A stretch of 64,000 nucleotides of DNA from assembly GCA_963732795.1 (NCBI GenBank), contig CAVTAV010000001.1, forward strand, positions 230,927 through 294,926, read 5' to 3'. Below the pieces are notes generated by a model. It was not told where the DNA came from and searched no databases. It saw only the letters and a program-made list of their open reading frames with translations. A program made the position numbers and the translations under genes. Source of the stretch: an uncultured Alphaproteobacteria bacterium (lineage in GTDB: Bacteria > Pseudomonadota > Alphaproteobacteria > CAVTAV01). Of this stretch, positions 1 to 30,259 are shown piece by piece (position 1 is the first letter of the stretch; every line of letters begins with the position of its first letter).

Positions 1-175
1 TGAGCTTCTGCTTGGCGCGAAGCTGCACGCCGAAGTCGGAGACCTTGCCCTTGCGGCGCTGGCCATGGACGCCCGGTCCATAGTCGCGGCGGTTGACCGG
101 GCTCTTGGGGCGGCCCCAGAGGTTCTCGCCCATGCGCCGGTCGATTTTATATTTTGCTTCTGCCCGCTTCGTCAT
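1..175 (-). CDS. rpsD: 30S ribosomal protein S4, N-terminal part (gene continues beyond window start)
   Basis: Reverse-complement translation from the ATG at 173-175 gives [58 protein letters not shown], the conserved S4 N-terminus. Confidence 0.85.
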
Positions 176-263
176 GCGTTAAGTCACTTCGTCCTTGCTA
201 CGGCTTGAATAGAAGGCGCGTACTATATCCGCCGCCGCGCGCTTGTCAAATGGCGCGAAGACC

Positions 264-1085
264 TTAATTTCCGCCCGAATCGCCGTTTCGGGTCAGCGCC
301 TTGATGACGCCCCGGAGCGTGCGGATGTCCTGCTCCGAAAACTGGCCTTTTTGCAAGAGGTTACGGAGATTCCTCACCATTGCCGGGCGCTTCTCCGGTG
401 GCCTCAGGAATCCGGCTGCATCCAGCTCCGCCTCCAGGTGCTCGAAAAGGCGTACGAGGTCCTCCTTGGGCGCGGGCGGCGGCAGGTCGGGCGAGGGCAG
501 GCGGTCGGAAACCGCGGCGGTGAACCACTCGTAGCCGATGATCAGCACCGCCTGGGCCAGATTCAGCGAGGAAAACTCGGGGCTCGCCGGGATATGGAGG
601 ATCTTGTTCGAGAGCGCCACGTCGTCATTGTCGAGCCCGGCCTTTTCCGGCCCGAACAGGATGCCGCAGCGCTCGCCCCGGCCGATCCTCTCGGCCATTT
701 CCGCCGCCGCTTCCCTGGGCGTCGCGGCGGGCTTGGCCATATGACGCGCCCGCGCCGTCGTCGCGAAAACGAGCGAGAGGTCGGCGACGGCATCCTCGGT
801 CTGGCGCGCGAGCTTCGCCAACTCGAGAATTGCATCGGCCCCCGCCGCCATGGGCACCGCCGCCGGGTTGGGCCAGCCGTCGCGCGGCGCGACGAGCCTC
901 AAGTCGGTCAGCCCGAAATTGCGCATGGCGCGCGCCGTCGCGCCGATATTCTCGCCGAGCTGGGGTTTGACCAGGATGATCGCGGGCGCGGGCCCGTCCG
1001 CCGCACTACTTGCCACGATGCGGCGCCATCCAGGAGAAGAGCTTGCCGCCAAAGGCATAGCCAATGCCGACGAATACCACGGCAA
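264..1085 (-). CDS. SpoU/TrmH-family RNA 2'-O-methyltransferase (TrmJ-like)
   Basis: 273-aa ORF with PAIILVKPQLGENIGATARAMRNFG and ILFGPEKAGL motifs typical of SpoU methyltransferases. An alternative start at 1058 is possible. The 5' end overlaps the nrsF stop. Confidence 0.72.
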   Translation of the reverse strand: MPWYSSALAMPLAASSSPGWRRIVASSAADGPAPAIILVKPQLGENIGATARAMRNFGLTDLRLVAPRDGWPNPAAVPMAAGADAILELAKLARQTEDAVADLSLVFATTARARHMAKPAATPREAAAEMAERIGRGERCGILFGPEKAGLDNDDVALSNKILHIPASPEFSSLNLAQAVLIIGYEWFTAAVSDRLPSPDLPPPAPKEDLVRLFEHLEAELDAAGFLRPPEKRPAMVRNLRNLLQKGQFSEQDIRTLRGVIKALTRNGDSGGN

Positions 1086-1674
1086 GGCCGAGATTCCAGA
1101 ACAGGATCATGACCGTGGCGTCCTCGTCATGGATATGGATCAGCGAATGCGCGGTCGCCGTGATCGCCGCCACCGCGAGGCTTCCGGTAATCATGGCGCC
1201 GGTCGGACGCAACGGCGCGGCATGGCGCAACATGACGAGGAGGGCAATGAAGATCGGCAGGCTGGTGAGCGCCACCACCACGAAGCAATCCGCCGATCCC
1301 CCGAGACTGAACCCGTTCGGCCCGAAGGACACCCAATCGGTCAGGCACTGATAGCCCAGCGTCGAGAGCCAAAGAACGAGAGCGGGCAACGGCAGCGCTG
1401 CCCAGGCCCGCGAACGGTCCGGCTGGCTCAGCATGAAGCTCGCCAACGCCGCCAGCACGGCCGTCAGCACCGCGCCGGCCAGATTGGCGTCGAACTGCAT
1501 CTGATGAAACCGCGCGGCGAGGTCCGCCCGGAAGCCCTCGACCAGCGCCGCCAGCACCAGCACGCCGACCCCGATCGCCAGCCAGGAGGCCGCGCGCAGC
1601 AGCGGCGGCCGCAACGGCTTCACCGGCGCCGCTTCCGCCGCAAGCTGGTCTATAAGGTCTGGCGTCGTGGTCAC
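1006..1674 (-). CDS. nrsF: DUF1109-family membrane protein, putative anti-sigma-F factor NrsF
   Basis: 222-aa polytopic membrane ORF with six hydrophobic segments. Its start overlaps the stop of the upstream ECF sigma gene (ATGA overlap), the typical sigF-nrsF arrangement. Confidence 0.7.
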   Translation of the reverse strand: MTTTPDLIDQLAAEAAPVKPLRPPLLRAASWLAIGVGVLVLAALVEGFRADLAARFHQMQFDANLAGAVLTAVLAALASFMLSQPDRSRAWAALPLPALVLWLSTLGYQCLTDWVSFGPNGFSLGGSADCFVVVALTSLPIFIALLVMLRHAAPLRPTGAMITGSLAVAAITATAHSLIHIHDEDATVMILFWNLGLAVVFVGIGYAFGGKLFSWMAPHRGK

Positions 1675-2240
1675 GGCTCGGAGCTCCTGGCGCTCAGAAT
1701 CTTCCGCAAATTGATCAAGGCCCGATGGGTCGCCACCTTGAGGGCGGTGACCGACGTGCCGGTCGTCTCGGAAGCCTCTTTTAGCGACATCTCGTTCAGC
1801 TTCAACATCTGGATCGCCTGGCGCTGACCCGCCGGCAGGCTTTCGATCGCCGCATGCAGGTCGCGCCGGTCCAGAACATCCTCACCCCTATTCGCTTGGG
1901 GCGCGGCAAAGGTTTCCTCATGGGCGGCGGCAAGCGCCTCATATGTCCGGGCCCGCCCTGTCTTGCGCAACCGATCGACGATCCGGCGATGGGCGATCGC
2001 CACCAGCCAAGGGCCGAAGGGCCGCGTCGGATCATAGGTCCGGCGCACCGCATGGATGGTCAGCAGGATATCCTGGACCGTATCCTCGACCTCACTCGGA
2101 TCGCGCAGCTTTCCGGCCGCCAGCGAGCGCAGATAGGGCGCGGCCTCCTGCAGCAATTGCCGATAGGCCGTCCCGTCGCCCGATTGGGCGCGGGCCATGA
2201 GGTCGGACCAGTCGGACCTTATCGGTGTGTCGCCGGACAT
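1671..2240 (-). CDS. sigF: ECF RNA polymerase sigma factor (sigma-70 family, SigF-like)
   Basis: 189-aa ORF with a sigma-70 region 2 (DTVQDILLTIHAVRRTYDPTRPFGPWLVAIAHRRIVDRLR) and a region 4 HTH (QRQAIQMLKLNEMSLKEASETTGTSVTALKVATHRALINLRK). It is co-transcribed with nrsF. Confidence 0.82.
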   Translation of the reverse strand: MSGDTPIRSDWSDLMARAQSGDGTAYRQLLQEAAPYLRSLAAGKLRDPSEVEDTVQDILLTIHAVRRTYDPTRPFGPWLVAIAHRRIVDRLRKTGRARTYEALAAAHEETFAAPQANRGEDVLDRRDLHAAIESLPAGQRQAIQMLKLNEMSLKEASETTGTSVTALKVATHRALINLRKILSARSSEP

Positions 2241-2329
2241 AAGTTCTCTTACGACGGCCCCGGAACCGGGTCAAATGCGGCCGCACACAAACTTGTGACC
2301 GGGATTGCAGACAAAATTTTCGGGCCGGC

Positions 2330-2355
2330 GTAACCCGCGGCGCCCGCCCCGCGAA
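2330..2355 (+). promoter_or_regulatory. ECF sigma (SigF-type) promoter GTAACC-N16-CGAA upstream of the first DUF2282 precursor
   Basis: GTAACC at 2330-2335, an exact 16-nt spacer, then CGAA at 2352-2355. It lies 45 nt upstream of the ATG at 2401, and a GGAGG RBS sits at 2386-2390. Confidence 0.6.
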
Positions 2356-2400
2356 CCTCCCCCTGTAAATCGAAACCCAAACCCTCGAGGAGGTTCCGTC

Positions 2401-2700
2401 ATGAATCGCTTACTCGCAGCCACCGCTCTCACCGCCGCCCTTGGCCTCGCCGGGGCGTACACCGCCGTCCAGGCCGCCGAGGGCGACATGCCCCAGATCG
2501 TCAAGGACAACATGATGCGCGCCAAGGCCCAGCACCTGGAGAAGTGCTACGGCATCAACGCGGCCGCCAAGAACGACTGCGCCGAGGGCGCCCACTCCTG
2601 CGCCGGCCAGGCGACCATGCCGCGCGATCCCAAGTCCTTCGTGCTTCTGCCCATGGGCGACTGCGCGAAGATCGCGGGCGGCTCGACGACGGCGGCTTGA
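2401..2700 (+). CDS. bufA: DUF2282-family secreted Cys4 precursor peptide (bufferin/GigP-like)
   Basis: 99-aa protein. It has a Sec-type signal peptide (MNRLLAATALTAALGLAGAYTAVQAA) followed by EKCYGINAAAKNDCAEGAHSCAGQ...MGDCAKIAGGS with four Cys. Confidence 0.8.
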   Translation: MNRLLAATALTAALGLAGAYTAVQAAEGDMPQIVKDNMMRAKAQHLEKCYGINAAAKNDCAEGAHSCAGQATMPRDPKSFVLLPMGDCAKIAGGSTTAA

Positions 2701-2736
2701 TTGGGCCTAAGCCGACCGGTACCGGGCGGCCGGGTC

Positions 2737-2762
2737 GTAACCTTTTCAAGTGCACGGCCGAA
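2737..2762 (+). promoter_or_regulatory. Second ECF (SigF-type) promoter GTAACC-N16-CGAA upstream of the second DUF2282 precursor
   Basis: GTAACC at 2737-2742, a 16-nt spacer, then CGAA at 2759-2762. It is 62 nt upstream of the ATG at 2825, with an AAGGAAGG RBS. Confidence 0.6.
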
Positions 2763-2824
2763 CTATCGAACGGTGACCAAAGGTGACCAGCACTTCCCAC
2801 CAACACCAAGGAAGGTTTCTAAGG

Positions 2825-3187
2825 ATGAAAAGCAATCGAAGCATCGCCACGTCCGTCCTCGTTTCGGCAGTGGGCCTCTCCCTCGTGGCAGGTCTGACGC
2901 CGACGTCTGCGGCGGAGAACGCGACCATGCAGCAGAAGCTCGAGCAGATGCTCAAGATGCATCCGGGTGCCAGCAAGGAGACGATCGAAGCAAACATGAA
3001 GCGGGTCGCGAAGAACCATCTCGCCCGCTGCTACGGCATCAACGCGGTCGCCAAAAACGACTGCGCCTCGGGCGCCCATTCCTGCTCGGGGCAGTCGACC
3101 ATGGCGCGGGACCCCTCAGCCTTCGTGCTGTTGCCCGCTGGCGATTGCGCGAAGATCGCGGGCGGGTCAACCAAAGGTCCGATGTAA
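2825..3187 (+). CDS. bufA: DUF2282-family secreted Cys4 precursor peptide, second paralogue
   Basis: 120-aa protein. Signal peptide MKSNRSIATSVLVSAVGLSLVAGLTPTSAAE, an extra ~35-aa linker, then ARCYGINAVAKNDCASGAHSCSGQ...AGDCAKIAGGS with the same Cys4 pattern. Confidence 0.78.
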   Translation: MKSNRSIATSVLVSAVGLSLVAGLTPTSAAENATMQQKLEQMLKMHPGASKETIEANMKRVAKNHLARCYGINAVAKNDCASGAHSCSGQSTMARDPSAFVLLPAGDCAKIAGGSTKGPM

Positions 3188-3198
3188 GTCGCCGATTG

Positions 3199-4089
3199 AT
3201 GTCTCCGATGATGACCAGCCCAAAGCCATCGTCGGGCCCGGTCCCCGCTTCGGCGGGGATCGGGCTGCGCTTCCCGCACCATCGGGCCGTGGCCGAGACC
3301 GCTCCGGCCATCGCCTGGCTCGAGGTTCACACTGAGAACTATGTGGGCGGCGGGCCTTCGGTCAGCACGCTGGAGGCGATCCGGCGGGACTATCCGATCT
3401 CGTGCCATGGCGTGGGGCTGTCGCTTGGAAGCGCCGAGGGGATCGAAAAGCGGCATCTTGCGCGCATCGGTGACGTAATCGAGCGTTTCGAGCCCGGCCT
3501 CGTCTCCGAGCATCTGTCCTGGAGCGTCTCCGGCGGGACCTATCTCGCAGATCTCCTGCCGTTGCCGATGACCGAGGAGGCGCTCGATATCGTCTGCCGC
3601 AATGTCGAGACGGTTCAAGACCGGCTCAAGCGCCGCATTCTGGTCGAGAACCCGTCGAGCTATCTCCGTTATCGCCATTCGACCATCCCCGAGGCCGAGT
3701 TCATCGCCGCCGTCGCCGGACGCACCGGTTGCGGCATCCTCTGCGACGTCAACAATATTTATGTCAGCGCGCACAACCACGGTTGGGACGCTCGGGCCTA
3801 TCTCGCGGGCCTGCCGGCTGAGGCGGTCGGCGAAATCCATCTCGCCGGTCATTCGGCGCGCCGGTTGGAGAACGGCCGCACGATCCTGATCGACGACCAC
3901 GGCTCGCGGGTGATCCCGGAGGTTTGGGCACTCTATGAGGCGGCTCTGCAACGCTTCGGCCCGGTCCCGAGCCTGATCGAATGGGACACCAACGTCCCGG
4001 CGCTCGACGTGCTTCTGGACGAAGCCGCCGGGGCGGCCGCCCGGCTCACCGCCTTTGGCAAGGAGAACGGCAATGCCGACGCTGCTTGA
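3199..4089 (+). CDS. bufB: DUF692-family protein (MNIO / MbnB-TglH-like multinuclear iron oxidase; BufB/GigA-like)
   Basis: ~296-aa ORF (the listed 462-aa ORF is over-extended upstream). The region IGLRFPHH...AWLEVHTENY...VSEHLSW...HLAGH is characteristic of DUF692 TIM-barrel enzymes. Confidence 0.78.
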   Translation: MSPMMTSPKPSSGPVPASAGIGLRFPHHRAVAETAPAIAWLEVHTENYVGGGPSVSTLEAIRRDYPISCHGVGLSLGSAEGIEKRHLARIGDVIERFEPGLVSEHLSWSVSGGTYLADLLPLPMTEEALDIVCRNVETVQDRLKRRILVENPSSYLRYRHSTIPEAEFIAAVAGRTGCGILCDVNNIYVSAHNHGWDARAYLAGLPAEAVGEIHLAGHSARRLENGRTILIDDHGSRVIPEVWALYEAALQRFGPVPSLIEWDTNVPALDVLLDEAAGAAARLTAFGKENGNADAA

Positions 4090-4858
4090 GATCGAACGCG
4101 CCGTCCGCGCCGCCTTGCTCGATCCCGGCAACGACGATGCTCTCCGGCACATCGTCGCCGACGGCATCGCGCCGGAGAATCGCCTCGCGATCTATCGCAA
4201 CACGTATGTTTCGGGCGCGGTCAAAGCCCTTGAGCTCAATTTCCCGGCGGTTCGGAATCTGGTCGGCAACGAATTCTTCGAAGGCGCGGCGCGGATCTAT
4301 ATCGATGCAAATCCGCCCGAGAGCGCGTGTCTCGATGATTACGGCGCGGGTTTCCCGGACTTTCTGGCCGATTTCCCGCCCGCGCAATCGCTCGCCTATC
4401 TCGGCGACGTCGCGCGTCTGGAGTGGATGGTGTCGCGCGTCCTGCATGCTGCCGACACGCCGTCCCTCGACGTCGCCCGCCTGTCCGCGGTTCCGCCGGA
4501 GGATCACGGCCGCATCCGCTTCGCGCCGAGTCCCTCGGCCGGCCTCATTCGCGCGGATTGCCCCGCTGATGAGATCTGGCGCGCGGTCCTCGACGGCGAT
4601 GACGATGCGATGGCCGCGGTCGATCCCGGCGCGGGGCCGATCTGGCTCCTGGTCCGGCGCGGGACTATGGGCATCGACGTCGCACGGCTCGACGAAGCCG
4701 ACGCCCGCTTTCTTCTGCTGCTGATCGACGGCACGCCCCTCGACGACGCGCTGGCCATGGCGGGCGACATCGACGGCCCCGCCGTCCTCGCCCGGTTTCT
4801 CACCGGCGGCGTCTTTGCCGGATTCGACCTTCAGAAAGAACAGGGAGCTTCCCGATGA
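4073..4858 (+). CDS. bufC: DUF2063-family protein (MbnC/TglI-like partner of DUF692; BufC/GigB-like)
   Basis: ~261-aa ORF overlapping the bufB 3' end. The N-terminus MPTLLEIERAVRAALLDPGNDDALRHIVADGIAPENRLAIYRNTY is typical of DUF2063. Confidence 0.72.
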   Translation: MPTLLEIERAVRAALLDPGNDDALRHIVADGIAPENRLAIYRNTYVSGAVKALELNFPAVRNLVGNEFFEGAARIYIDANPPESACLDDYGAGFPDFLADFPPAQSLAYLGDVARLEWMVSRVLHAADTPSLDVARLSAVPPEDHGRIRFAPSPSAGLIRADCPADEIWRAVLDGDDDAMAAVDPGAGPIWLLVRRGTMGIDVARLDEADARFLLLLIDGTPLDDALAMAGDIDGPAVLARFLTGGVFAGFDLQKEQGASR

Positions 4859-5325
4859 CCACCACCGAAACCGCGACGGCCCGTCCGTCCTCCATGCTCA
4901 CGCTCTGCCGCCGCATCCTCACATGGCTCGACGCGATCCCGTATACGCTCCTGGCGATCCCCTTTCGGTTCGCCGTCGCGACGGTGTTCTGGAATTCGGC
5001 TCAGACCCACCTCGCAAATTGGGACACGACGCTCTACCTGTTCGAGAACGACTACGCCCTGCCGTTCCTACCGCCCCATCTCGCGGCCCATATGGCCGTC
5101 GCGATCGAGGTGTCGACGCCGATCCTTTTGGTCCTCGGCCTCCTCACCCGTCCGGCTGCGGCGGTGCTGCTCGGCATGACCCTGGTGATCGAAATCTTCG
5201 TCTACCCCATGGCCTGGCCGACCCATATCCAATGGGCCGCGATGGTGCTCGTGCTGCTGGCGCGAGGGCCGGGGAAGCTGTCGGTGGATTGGCTGGTGAG
5301 GCGGAAGGTGTTAGGCGAAGGCTGA
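4855..5325 (+). CDS. bufD: DoxX-family membrane protein (BufD/GigT-like)
   Basis: 156-aa ORF with four TM segments. ATGA overlap with bufC. Confidence 0.72.
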   Translation: MTTTETATARPSSMLTLCRRILTWLDAIPYTLLAIPFRFAVATVFWNSAQTHLANWDTTLYLFENDYALPFLPPHLAAHMAVAIEVSTPILLVLGLLTRPAAAVLLGMTLVIEIFVYPMAWPTHIQWAAMVLVLLARGPGKLSVDWLVRRKVLGEG

Positions 5326-5329
5326 AACA

Positions 5330-5440
5330 CTCTCAGTCGTCATGCCAGCGAAGGCTGGCATCCAGAGCAGCGTCCGACACGGAATCCGACCCAAACACCC
5401 TGGACCCCAGCATCCGCTGGGGTGACGGAACGGGCGGTGG
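5330..5440. repeat. Dispersed intergenic hairpin repeat, copy 1 (ATGCCAGCgaagGCTGGCAT hairpin plus a CCCCAGC...GCTGGGG hairpin)
   Basis: tcgtcatgccagcgaaggctggcatccag at 5337-5365 followed by ccccagcatccgctgggg. It recurs at 20288-20377 and, inverted and partial, at 46384-46412. Confidence 0.7.
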
Positions 5441-7066
5441 TCAGCCCGTCCCCGCCGGCGCGCCGTCGCGATAGAGCTTGTAGGTCAGGCTGTCGTTCAG
5501 GGCCTGGAACGAGGCGTCCACGATGTTCGGTGAGACGCCGACCGTGAACCAGCGGCGGCCTTCGCCATCCGCGCTTTCGATCATGACGCGGGTGACGGCG
5601 TTGGTGCCGTCGCCGGTGCCCTGGTTGAGGATGCGGACCTTGTAATCGACGAGGCGCAGATCCTCGATATAGGGCGAGTATTTGCCAAGGTCCTTGCGGA
5701 GCGCGACGTCGAGCGCGTTGACCGGGCCGTTGCCTTCGCCGACCGACATGAATTCCTCGCCGTCGACTGTCAGCTTCACTGTCGCCTCGGACATGGTCAC
5801 GAGCTCGCCCTTGGCGTTGTAGCGGCGCTCCACCAGCGTGCGGAAGCTGTCGACGTTGAAGTAGGTCGGCACCTCGCCGAGCGTGCGCCGCGCGAGAAGC
5901 TCGAAGCTCGCCGCCGCGCCGTCATAGGAATAGCCGTCGAACTCGCGCTCCTTGACGATTTCGAGGAGGCGCTTGAGCTTCGGGTTCTTCGGATCGACCT
6001 CGACGCCGATCTCGTTGAGCCGCGCGACGATATTGGCGACGCCGGACTGGTCCGAGACCAGGATCTGCCGTTCGTTGCCGACCGTCTCCGGCGGAATGTG
6101 CTCGTAGGTCTTCGGATCCTTCAGGACCGCCGAGACATGCAGCCCGCCCTTATGCGCGAAGGCCGAGGCGCCGACATAGGCGGCGTTGCGGGCCGGGCGC
6201 GCGGTTCAAGGTTTCGTCCAACTGGCGCGACAGGCCGGTCAGCTTCTTCAAAGCCTCCTCGGAGATGCCGGTATCGACGAGATCGCGATAGGTCGGCTTC
6301 AGGACCAGCGATCGGGATCAGCGAGATCAGATTCGCATTGCCGCAGCGCTCGCCGAGGCCGTTGATCGTGCCCTGGATCTGCCGCGCGCCGGCGCGGACG
6401 GCGGCGAGGCTGTTGGCGACGGCGTTCTCGGTGTCGTTATGGGCATGGATGCCGAGCTTAGTGTCCGGGATGGTCTCGGCGACCTTGGCGACGATGCGCT
6501 CGACCTCGTCGGGCAGGGTCCCGCCATTCGTGTCGCACAGCACCAGCCACCGCGCGCCCGCGTCATGGGCCGCCTTGAGGCAGTCCATCGCGTAGCCCGG
6601 ATTGGCCTTGTAGCCGTCGAAGAAGTGCTCGGCGTCGAACAATGGCTCGCGTTCGCGCTTGGCGACCTCGGCGACGCTATCGCGGATCAGCTCCAGATTT
6701 TCGTCGAGCGAAATCTCGAGCGCGACCTTGACATGGAAATCCCAGGTCTTGCCGACGAGGCAGATCGCCTTGGCATCGGCATCGAACAGCGCCGCGAGGC
6801 CCGGATCGTTCTCGACGCTACGGCCCGGCCGGCGGGTCATGCCGAAGGCGGTGAAGGTTGCGGTGCCCAAGCGTCGGCGCCTTGGCGAAGAAAGCCGTAT
6901 CGGTCGGGTTCGCCCCCGGCCAGCCGCCTTCGACATAGGCGACGCCGATCTTGTCGAGCGCCGTCGCCAGGAGCCGCTTGTCTTCGACGCTGAAATCGAC
7001 GCCCTGGGTCTGCGCGCCGTCGCGGAGCGTCGTGTCGTAGAGATAGAGGCGTTCGCGCTTGCTCAT
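5441..7066 (-). pseudogene. cimA: Citramalate synthase / 2-isopropylmalate synthase family (LeuA-CimA), interrupted by several indels
   Basis: N-terminal fragment [30 protein letters not shown] (start 7066). Middle fragment 6121-6936 with the HAHNDTENAVANSLAAVRAGARQIQGTINGLGERCGNA catalytic region. C-terminal regulatory-domain fragment 5441-5872. At least three frame changes. Confidence 0.7.
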
Positions 7067-8461
7067 CCTGCGCGCCTCCATGTGGTTCCGGCGGGGCCGT
7101 CCTCCAGGATCACGCCATTGGCTTTGAGCTCGTCGCGGATGCGGTCGGACTTCGGCGAAATCGCGCTGCTTTCTGGCGGCGTTCCTTGCGGCGATCAGGT
7201 CTTCGATCTTGGACTCCGGAAGCCCGTCCCCGCCGTCGGCGCCCTTGAGCCAGGCCTCCGGCGCTTGCCGCAGCACGCCCAGGATCTTGCCACCCGCCAG
7301 CATCATCGCCTTCAATTCCGCCTTCTCGATCTCGCTCTCCGCCTTGTTCGCATCGCGCGCCAGATCGTGGAGCGCGGCGAAGGCTTCCGGCGTGTTGAGG
7401 TCGTCCTCGATGGCGCGGATGACGTGGCTTTCGCCGACATCCTTGGCCGGCTCGACATCGGCGAGCCTCTGCATCGCGAGGTAGAGCCGGTCGAGCGAGC
7501 GCTTGGCCTGCTCCAAGCCGTCCTCGGACCAGTTCAACGGCGCGCGGTAATGGGCCGACAGCATGAGATAGCGCGCGGCCTCCGCCGGCCAATTTTTCAG
7601 GACCTCATGCACCTTGGTGATATTGCCGAGGCTCTTCGACATCTTCTCGTCCTGGACCGTCAGAAACCCGTTATGCAGCCAGTAATTCGCCATCGGCTTG
7701 CCGTGATGGGCGCATTTGCTCTGGGCGATCTCGTTCTCGTGGTGGGGGAAGATCAGGTCCACGCCGCCGCCATGGATGTCGAAGGTCTCGCCGAGATGGG
7801 TCTCGCTCATGGCCGAGCATTCGATATGCCAGCCCGGCCGGCCCTTGCCCCAGGGGCTGTCCCAGCCGGGATGGTCGCCGGCCGGCTTCCACAGCACGAA
7901 ATCGGCCGGGTCCTTCTTGTAGGGCGCGACCTCGACCCGCGCGCCCGCGATCATGTCGTCGCGGTTGCGGCCCGAGAACGCGCCGTAATCCGGCATGGAG
8001 GTCACGTCGAACAGCACGTGCCCTTCGGCGACTGATAGGCATGGCCCGACGTCGATGAGCTCTCCCGATCATCGCGATCATCTGCGGGATATGCTCGGTC
8101 GCGCGCGGCACGACCGTCGGCGGCAGGGCGCCGAGCGCGGCCATGTCCTCGGCAGTAGATCGAGGCGAAACGCTCGGTGATCGCACTCCATCGGCTCGCC
8201 GGTCTTCTCATGGGCGGCGATGATCTTGTCGTCGACGTCGGTGACGTTGGCGACGATAGGTGACGTCGTAGCCCTTGGCCACGGAAATAGCGGTGCAGCA
8301 CGTCGAACACGATCACCGGCCGCGCGTTGCCGATATGGGCGTAGTCGTAGACCGTCGGCCCGCAGACATACATGCCCACATGGCCGGGCGTGATCGGCTC
8401 GAAAGCCGCGCTTCTCGCGGCGCGCGGTATCGTAAAGGACCAGGGCCACCGGCCGCTCCAT
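7063..8461 (-). pseudogene. cysS: Cysteine--tRNA ligase, multiple frameshifts (likely sequence error)
   Basis: Fragments [12 protein letters not shown]..., [32 protein letters not shown] (HIGH motif) and ...[18 protein letters not shown]...KMSKSLGN (KMSKS motif) lie in three frames. The stop overlaps the cimA start. Confidence 0.75.
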
Positions 8462-30181: not shown

Positions 30182-30259
30182 GGGGGCGATTAGCTCAGTT
30201 GGTAGAGCACTGTGTTCACATCGCAGGGGTCACTGGTTCGAGTCCAGTATCGCCCACCA
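30182..30259 (+). tRNA. tRNA-Val (anticodon CAC), CCA encoded
   Basis: Cloverleaf: acceptor GGGGGCG/CGCCC(C), D-arm TAGCTCAGTTGGTAGAGCA, anticodon stem CTGTG/CGCAG with loop TTCACAT (anticodon CAC), T-arm GGTTCGAGTCC, 3' ACCA. Confidence 0.85.

Follow-up and report, generated by a model that had tools for sequence, protein, structure and literature searches.

The stretch of DNA analysed here, a window of 64,000 nucleotides (nt) from an uncultured alphaproteobacterium (position 1 is its first letter and all coordinates refer to it), carries between positions 1006 and 5325 what is very probably a Buf1-type, gig-like bufferin cluster, controlled by the sigma factor SigF and its anti-sigma factor NrsF and encoding two different periplasmic copper-chelating peptides. 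The core genes are complete and intact, both precursors contain the four-cysteine (four-Cys) BufA1 domain and a SigF motif is located 5' of each of them. The features of Buf1-type clusters found in the window are a DUF2282 four-Cys precursor, a BufB-type MNIO, a closing DoxX protein, and an extracytoplasmic function (ECF) sigma factor accompanied by NrsF and a SigF-type promoter. The DUF2063 match of the BufC partner covers its N-terminal domain; the BufC proteins of Buf1-type clusters are defined in addition by an RRE-like domain at the C-terminus.

A preliminary description of this DNA had proposed a bufferin/gig-type operon, divergent from sigF-nrsF, for a metallophore of the ribosomally synthesised and post-translationally modified peptides; this proposal is supported by Pfam and NCBIfam profiles and by the Sec-type N-termini recognised on inspection, and a thiooxazole modification of -4 Da would be expected by analogy. 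All seven genes lie where that description had placed them, in the same order, and the families assigned to them are matched by the respective profiles, PF10048 twice, PF05114, PF09836 and PF07681. In particular, the bufB product matches PF05114 (MbnB_TglH_ChrH) at 8.5e-104 and the NCBIfam equivalog NF050167 MNIO_BufB with 374.1 bits against a cut-off of 310, over 261 of 262 profile positions, and stays below the cut-offs of the HvfB, ApyH, MbnB and ChrH models of NCBIfam. A sequence search of the PDB retrieved entry 3BWW (DUF692) for this protein (4.9e-36) and returned no relative of the precursor and none of BufC.

The locus was compared with the 80 species-representative loci that have the closest BufB relatives (64-78% identity; Alpha-, Beta- and Gammaproteobacteria); the closest of these BufBs, 78% identical, belongs to an uncultured alphaproteobacterial metagenome-assembled genome (MAG), and the sigma gene and nrsF are co-located in the same way in more than 60 related loci. 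The integrity of the genes, also claimed previously, is confirmed by six independent metagenome contigs (L001-L006, the population set), which align to positions 1-5683 of the window with zero gaps and 97.6-99.96% identity. No further buf genes were found by tblastn elsewhere in the 64 kb. The earlier remark that all the open reading frames (ORFs) are labelled as hypothetical or DUF proteins holds for the source records, which read 'uncharacterized membrane protein', 'hypothetical protein' and 'putative oxidoreductase', but is outdated for current libraries, where the families are named BufA1 and HvfC_N (Pfam) and MNIO_BufB (NCBIfam) and the homologues are called 'BufA1 family periplasmic bufferin-type metallophore' (NCBI/UniRef). 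The features are collected in Table 1.

Table 1. Features of the bufferin locus, with profile matches and sites that vary in the population set (aa, amino acids; RBS, ribosome-binding site).
Feature	Position	Strand	Description	Variable sites
nrsF	1006-1674	-	222 aa membrane anti-sigma factor (DUF1109/NrsF); 4-nt overlap with the sigF stop; Pfam NrsF 7.8e-30, 104.7 bits, full profile	
ECF sigma gene (SigF-type)	1671-2240	-	189 aa; Sigma70_r2 3.6e-13, Sigma70_r4_2 1.7e-11; TIGR02937 sigma70-ECF above cut-off	
Intergenic, sigF to bufA-short	2241-2400		160 nt	
P1, SigF-type motif GTAACC-N16-CGAA	2330-2355	+	Ends 45 nt 5' of the bufA-short start codon	
bufA-short	2401-2700	+	99 aa, BufA1/DUF2282 precursor, 4 Cys; DUF2282 (PF10048) 1.1e-20, above gathering score; GAGGAGG RBS upstream	3/300 (5 population contigs); 2 synonymous, 1 R3C in the signal peptide n-region
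Inter-precursor spacer	2701-2824		124 nt	0/124 (six population contigs)
P2, second SigF-type motif GTAACC-N16-CGAA	2737-2762	+	Inside the inter-precursor spacer; ends 62 nt 5' of bufA-long	
bufA-long	2825-3187	+	120 aa, BufA1/DUF2282 precursor; DUF2282 (PF10048) 9.6e-19, above gathering score	1/363, synonymous (six population contigs)
bufB	3199-4089	+	MNIO (DUF692) maturase, 296 aa; gene callers start at 3208 (293 aa)	47/891
bufC	4073-4858	+	DUF2063 partner, 261 aa; 17-nt overlap with the bufB stop; PF09836 6.4e-23, residues 8-98	32/786
bufD	4855-5325	+	DoxX-family membrane protein, 156 aa; ATGA start/stop overlap with bufC; PF07681 2.1e-14	23/471

The two precursor peptides

The products of bufA-short and bufA-long are 50% identical overall and both carry the pattern C-YGINA-AKNDC-A-GAHSC-GQ...GDC-KIAGG, in agreement with the motif CYGINA-AKNDCA-GAHSC-GQ...GDCAKIAGGS that had previously been read in the two sequences. 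The four Cys and the His of GAHSC are invariant both in an alignment of the window precursors with 120 database homologues (122/122) and in a second alignment of 47 sequences (47/47), and about 20 further positions are likewise invariant in the larger one. The Cys spacings of the window precursors are 11 (I-II), 7 (II-III) and 21 (III-IV). The residues that flank the two Cys modified in Caulobacter Buf1 (NDCAxGAHSCxGQ) are, in both precursors, the invariant residues of the family; new peptide chemistry, for which the presence of two precursors had been considered a candidate sign, is therefore not indicated, the modified-Cys motifs being canonical and tandem precursor genes having already been published (PMC12452194). 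The conversion of Cys-II as well as Cys-III to 5-thiooxazoles and the binding of copper would instead be expected, with the same chemistry in both peptides, from the conserved residues and the Caulobacter precedent.

The N-terminus of the short form consists of MNR, LLAATALTAALGLAGAY and TAVQA|AE, with a predicted cleavage at VQA|AE, and that of the long form of MKSNR, SIATSVLVSAVGLSLVAGL and TPTSAA|EN, with a predicted cleavage at SAA|EN. Rule-based inspection, by which the signal peptides were judged together with Kyte-Doolittle means, recognises in both a basic n-region, a hydrophobic core of 17-19 aa, small residues at -3/-1 and no lipobox; the means of the maximal 15-aa window are 1.84 for bufA-short and 2.19 for bufA-long.

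The two forms belong to different groups of the family: the bufA-short product is 65-84% identical to the ordinary BufA1s of about 100-108 aa of other organisms, and the bufA-long product falls in a separate subclade of about 119-122 aa with the inserted segment ...M--KLE-MLKMHPGASKE.... An AlphaFold2 (AF2) model of the long precursor places helices at residues 28-45 and 51-64, ahead of the Cys domain, with a predicted local distance difference test score (pLDDT) of about 80. The long form is characterised by an extra predicted helix of about 20 aa, containing Met and His, ahead of the Cys domain, and the short form is without this first helix; the helix common to the two is IVKDNMMRAKAQHLEK / TIEANMKRVAKNHLAR, and the segment just before Cys-I, NM-R----HL-(K/R)CYGINA, is also shared.

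The mature arm between signal peptide and Cys-I (2476-2544 in the short form, 2915-3028 in the long one) is strongly Met-rich across the subfamily. In 78 unique precursors from loci L009-L088 Met makes up on average 14% of the arm versus 0.8% of the Cys domain; many of them have MxxMxxM-like runs, such as MKDMSGMPQ..DNMARM, and ahead of Cys-I both NM and H-L are conserved. A term search of the main text of PMC11626156 turned up no mention of such an arm, which might assist in binding Cu(I) or in scavenging oxidants, or form part of the helix recognised by BufC.

SigF-type motifs, transcription and NrsF

The sequence GTAACC-N16-CGAA was defined as SigF-binding in Caulobacter by rapid amplification of cDNA 5' ends (5'-RACE) and reporter assays (PMC3511200) and was taken from that work. 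Two exact matches occur in the 64 kb versus 0.02 expected; both are on the + strand, one 5' of each precursor gene. Most of the 80 related loci contain an exact copy some 190-270 nt 5' of the codon for Cys-I, usually in a version extended to GTAACCTTT. Since it precedes bufA in most of these loci, its role as the operon promoter across the family has good comparative support. P2 fits the extended consensus and its distance from Cys-I, 267 nt, is the same as that of the motif in the single-precursor relative L007. P1 shows a single population variant, at 2338, within the motif spacer. At the corresponding locus of a sister lineage (L149) the GTAACC and CGAA elements of both P1 and P2 are retained and the spacers have diverged, and the P2 motif is also conserved in a further locus (L155).

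Other members of a SigF regulon were sought in the window and rejected: including the two exact ones there are six matches with at most one mismatch, 2.0 being expected, so that the four one-mismatch matches are near chance, and those examined (28332 and 61881) are inside or against unrelated genes. A terminator between the precursor genes was likewise rejected on the basis of the fold of 2690-2830, which is no better than that of shuffled sequences (z = 0.39), and of a terminator scan with no match on the + strand; because the interval has neither a predicted terminator nor a significant RNA structure, P1 transcripts probably read through into bufA-long and bufBCD.

The 5' untranslated region of bufA-long contains at 2777-2796, just 3' of the -10 element of P2, a direct repeat GGTGACC-AAA-GGTGACC, which is kept in L149 (GGTGACCGAAGGTGACC). 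L007 and L009 have one GGTGACC in a comparable position, and L151 and L153 have none; the repeat may indicate where transcription starts or be bound by a second regulator. At the other end of the operon, 17 nt past the bufD stop and between convergent genes, there is a perfect 8-bp inverted repeat at 5342-5361, ATGCCAGC-GAAG-GCTGGCAT, which is followed by no T-run and was not called by the terminator scan. The sole Rfam match above gathering score in the window is a tRNA gene (30184-30256).

NrsF of the window has only two Cys, C110 and C130, both of which are kept in every one of 60 homologues from related loci. A His-rich stretch, HSLIHIHDED, occupies residues ~176-185, versus ALSL--FHPLD in the consensus of the 60 homologues.

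Origin, maintenance and function of the precursor pair

The tandem precursor layout is uncommon yet already known. At most one precursor gene is found 5' of bufB in 78 of the 80 related loci, and tandem copies occur in the other two, which are a Stellaceae MAG (L059), with a tandem pair that lacks the SigF motif and a third copy after doxX with a motif of its own, and a Binatia MAG (L061), with the motif 5' of the first gene only. Some of the extra BufA1 copies of these loci have lipoprotein-type signal peptides (VVAGC, LQGC; 8197-8469 in L059, which is the copy after doxX, and ~1740-2054 in L061), which suggests membrane-anchored variants of Buf1. With L059 and L061, L149, L155 and L157 bring the further tandem-precursor examples to five. 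Among the long-form loci with enough upstream sequence, the long form has a short one ahead of it in the window, in L149, in L155 (as a partial ORF with an internal SigF motif) and in L157, and the long form occurs by itself in L007/L021, L009, L151, L152, L153 and L156.

The proteins of the window, compared with those of the single-precursor locus L009, are 74% (nrsF), 75% (sigF), 83% (bufA-long), 78% (bufB), 59% (bufC) and 84% (bufD) identical, L009 being the closest relative of each, and the bufA-short product is closest to the precursors of canonical short-form operons such as L158. In the simplest reading of these relationships the operon would be an L009-type, long-form cluster to which a cassette of promoter plus short precursor was added between sigF and the resident promoter; alternatively, the pair could stem from an older duplication and subsequent losses. 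A recent tandem duplication was considered and rejected, as the two genes are 50% identical, are separated by a dS (synonymous divergence) of about 1 and are each closer to precursors in other organisms. Closely related buf1 clusters are found in Cupriavidus sp. TMH.W2 on the 388-kb plasmid pTMH.W2_1 (L024) and on chromosome 1 (L020); such plasmid and chromosome copies, together with BufB relatives of 64-78% identity across Alpha-, Beta- and Gammaproteobacteria, are consistent with horizontal spread of the cluster.

Both precursor genes are maintained by purifying selection, as indicated by the ratio of nonsynonymous to synonymous divergence (dN/dS) between the window and the sister locus L149, computed at a dS of about 0.5, which is 0.21 for bufA-short and 0.11 for bufA-long; that of bufB is 0.13. 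In the population set the precursor genes and the spacer between them hardly vary, whereas 4-5% of the sites of bufB, bufC and bufD are variable. L149 has the same layout and both motifs, and its proteins are 88-89% (BufB), 88% (long form) and 82-83% (short form) identical to those of the window. The exact protein sequences of the window are on public record in one contig of 365,898 bp and in several short contigs.

The mechanism proposed for the locus follows the Caulobacter work (PMC11626156, PMC3511200). Metal stress, due to copper or to Cr/Cd, would inactivate NrsF through its two periplasm-facing Cys, and the released SigF would fire P1 and P2; with probable read-through from P1, both promoters would serve bufA-long and bufBCD, and bufA-short would depend on P1 alone. 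In the cytoplasm BufB, a multi-iron oxidase, would act with BufC on Cys-II and Cys-III (NDC-AxGAHS-C) of both precursors, each 5-thiooxazole accounting for -4 Da. The peptides would then be exported by Sec and cleaved by signal peptidase, Cys-I and Cys-IV would form a disulfide bond, and the mature periplasmic products of ~74 and ~90 aa would chelate Cu(I)/Cu(II). DoxX would be accessory; it is dispensable in Caulobacter (PMC11626156). The same study found that the signal peptide is dispensable for modification and that recognition involves the core peptide, and for this reason the shared segment preceding Cys-I, NM-R----HL-(K/R)C, could plausibly be what a single BufB/BufC pair recognises.

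Several points weigh against this assignment. The function of the locus is predicted from sequence and from analogy with Caulobacter, with signal peptides assigned by rule, and the candidate inducers are Cu, Cr/Cd or oxidants; the action of one BufB/BufC pair on both precursors is suggested only by their shared segment NM-R----HL--C-YGINA...; and the AF2 model of the long precursor is moderately confident (mean pLDDT 67) and low across the Cys-II/III loop. On the regulatory side, a search 5' of sigF that allowed at most 2 mismatches and a spacer of 15 to 17 nt found no SigF motif, so that an autoregulatory site of this kind is rejected. Window NrsF scores 24 bits on the NCBIfam equivalog of Caulobacter-type NrsF, whose cut-off is 300, and its Cys are 20 residues apart versus C131 and C181 in Caulobacter numbering (PMC3511200); because of this score and of the mismatch in spacing, the signal sensed at the window locus may differ from that of Caulobacter.

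For the presence of two precursors within such a bufferin cluster, different explanations have to be weighed. It is very improbable that one of the genes, with the added short one as the likelier candidate, is a remnant without function whose product is neither modified nor exported any more: nothing specific speaks for it, apart from the mention in PMC12452194 of extra or stand-alone precursor genes of uncertain functionality, and both ORFs are intact, with RBS, predicted signal peptide and all the invariant residues, both promoter motifs are conserved, variation in the population is near zero and the dN/dS values are those of constrained genes, against a lineage at dS ~0.5. It is possible, though doubtful, that the pair serves dosage. 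Bufferins act stoichiometrically, according to the chelator mode of action described in PMC11626156, and a second cassette of promoter plus precursor would only raise the output of peptide per enzyme, the two peptides being functionally alike; with a SigF motif for each gene and no terminator between them precursor transcripts would outnumber enzyme transcripts, and the context of the modified Cys is identical in the two peptides. However, redundancy of this type would normally be expected to involve a recent, near-identical copy, rather than genes with 50% identity and a dS of ~1, and the pairing is specifically short plus long in several lineages.

The same divergence, with the membership of different subclades, the recurrence of the short and long pair across a minimum of four lineages (window, L149, L155, L157) and the purifying selection on both genes, speaks for a functional differentiation of the two peptides, a reading that is nevertheless rather unlikely. 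The Met/His helix of the long form would provide an additional Cu(I) site, confer another metal preference or act as an arm that scavenges oxidants, and the separate promoters would set the doses relative to the enzymes; the extra helix is confidently predicted in the model, the mature segment before Cys-I contains 14% Met versus 0.8% in the Cys domain and, according to PMC4436054, a Met-rich peptide of the periplasm with a hypochlorite-scavenging role is under the control of SigF/NrsF systems elsewhere. On the other hand, the motifs of the Cys domain are the same in both precursors, so the core metal site should match, the Met-rich arm is present in the short form too, and six or seven loci use the long form alone while most relatives use the short form alone. 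A further proposal, which is unlikely, is that the recurrent pair is a functional two-peptide system rather than a redundancy, in which one BufB/BufC pair would mature two structurally distinct bufferins, the helical hairpin of the long form, with its Met and His, would contribute a second Cu(I) site, of the thioether/imidazole type, or Met residues that are sacrificed to oxidants, and the SigF promoters would set the ratios of peptide to peptide and of peptide to enzyme.

Under the Buf1-type assignment, the locus adds nothing categorically new to what is a recently characterised and very widespread bacterial copper defence. Its additions are modest and include the dual SigF motifs, the recurrent short and long pairing in at least four lineages and the strongly Met-rich N-terminal arm; further new details are the derivation of the precursors from different BufA1 subclades and the short form, which looks like an added cassette of promoter and precursor. 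No published description of a tandem pair composed of the short and long BufA1 subclades was found. The locus is a clean natural case for the recognition of multiple substrates by one MNIO/partner pair, as well as for the role of the variable Met-rich N-terminal arm of BufA1 peptides; the short and long precursors, which share NM-R----HL-(K/R)CYGINA and differ by a whole helix, are a ready-made pair of substrates. The occurrence of GTAACC-N16-CGAA 5' of bufA in most of the 80 loci, across three proteobacterial classes, supports the use of this motif in the prediction of SigF regulons outside Caulobacter.

Neighbouring genes and comparison with known systems

On the minus strand next to the cluster, a citramalate/isopropylmalate-synthase-like gene (5441-~7000) and cysS (~6818-8461) are each broken into several frames. 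The preliminary description had contrasted intact buf genes with surrounding housekeeping genes that carry indels; the indels are present, but the contrast is probably an artefact of assembly. The frame changes read in cysS (~7600-8461, minus strand) are located at ttt in ...ggctttcgag..., ggg in ...caagggctac... and cc in ...cgccaacg..., with an extra t, g and c. Frameshifts at short homopolymers are typical of long-read assembly errors and, as the shifts of cysS sit at such runs, they look like errors of this type rather than pseudogenisation. A metagenome scan with a cysS 26-mer conserved across many taxa retrieved no contig of the same species, the longest match being 817 nt (L094, 79.6%) and the sole match of higher identity a fragment of 86 nt; in a phase-switch scan of GC content at third codon positions (GC3) the frameshifts were not separable from gene boundaries. 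The presence of intact buf genes beside broken housekeeping genes should not be taken as biology without read-level evidence.

Among the systems based on related maturases, methanobactin clusters are distant from the window locus (MbnB 39.5 bits versus a cut-off of 325, and neither MbnA nor MbnC seen among the ORFs of the region). The HvfA/oxazolin (Buf_EGKCG) and Buf2 (6/12-Cys) captophorin clusters share with it an MNIO, a partner of the DUF2063 type and Cys-rich precursors, as well as the Sec export, the thiooxazole chemistry and the involvement of copper that are predicted for the window. However, the locus does not belong to the oxazolin/Hvf group, since its products score 227.6 versus 360 on HvfB, 28.8 versus 142 on HvfC and, for bufD, 47.7 versus 80 on HvfX, and its precursors are without EGKCG repeats; nor does it belong to the Buf2 (Buf_6/12Cys) group, since the precursors have four Cys and reach 16.7 and 18.9 bits on NF050166 BufA2, whose cut-off is 60.

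Buf1-type bufferin clusters were characterised in 2024, and gig is equated with buf in PMC11626156. The buf1 cluster of Caulobacter vibrioides (bufA1B1C1D1, CCNA_03363-03366; PMC11626156, PMC3511200) has the same gene set and order as the window, with nrsF-sigF beside DUF2282-MNIO-DUF2063-DoxX, and likewise a four-Cys precursor with a Sec signal peptide, predicted in the case of the window, and GTAACC-N16-CGAA 5' of the precursor. The Cys of the Caulobacter core, numbered 12/23/31/52, have the I-II (11) and III-IV (21) spacings of the window precursors, whereas II-III is 8 versus 7. In contrast to Caulobacter, the window has a pair of precursor genes rather than a single one, both of them with a SigF motif of their own, an NrsF distant from the Caulobacter equivalog and no SigF motif found 5' of sigF. 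The gig (gold-induced genes) operon of Cupriavidus metallidurans and its relatives in Burkholderiales share with the window the layout nrsF-sigF / A-B-C-D and the promoter motif, and the window BufB is 68-75% identical to the homologues of Cupriavidus, Paraburkholderia and Caballeronia; these loci have a single short-form precursor (~103-110 aa), whereas the window adds the long form of ~120 aa, which is the resident precursor beside bufB. Bufferin clusters with tandem precursor genes were reported in 2025, with the suggestion that certain MNIOs act on multiple substrates (PMC12452194); as in the window, more than one BufA1 gene lies 5' of a single MNIO, implying one enzyme with at least two substrates. 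The main text of that report gives no detail on promoters or paired subclades, and the pair of the window is of the short plus long type, with an internal SigF motif.

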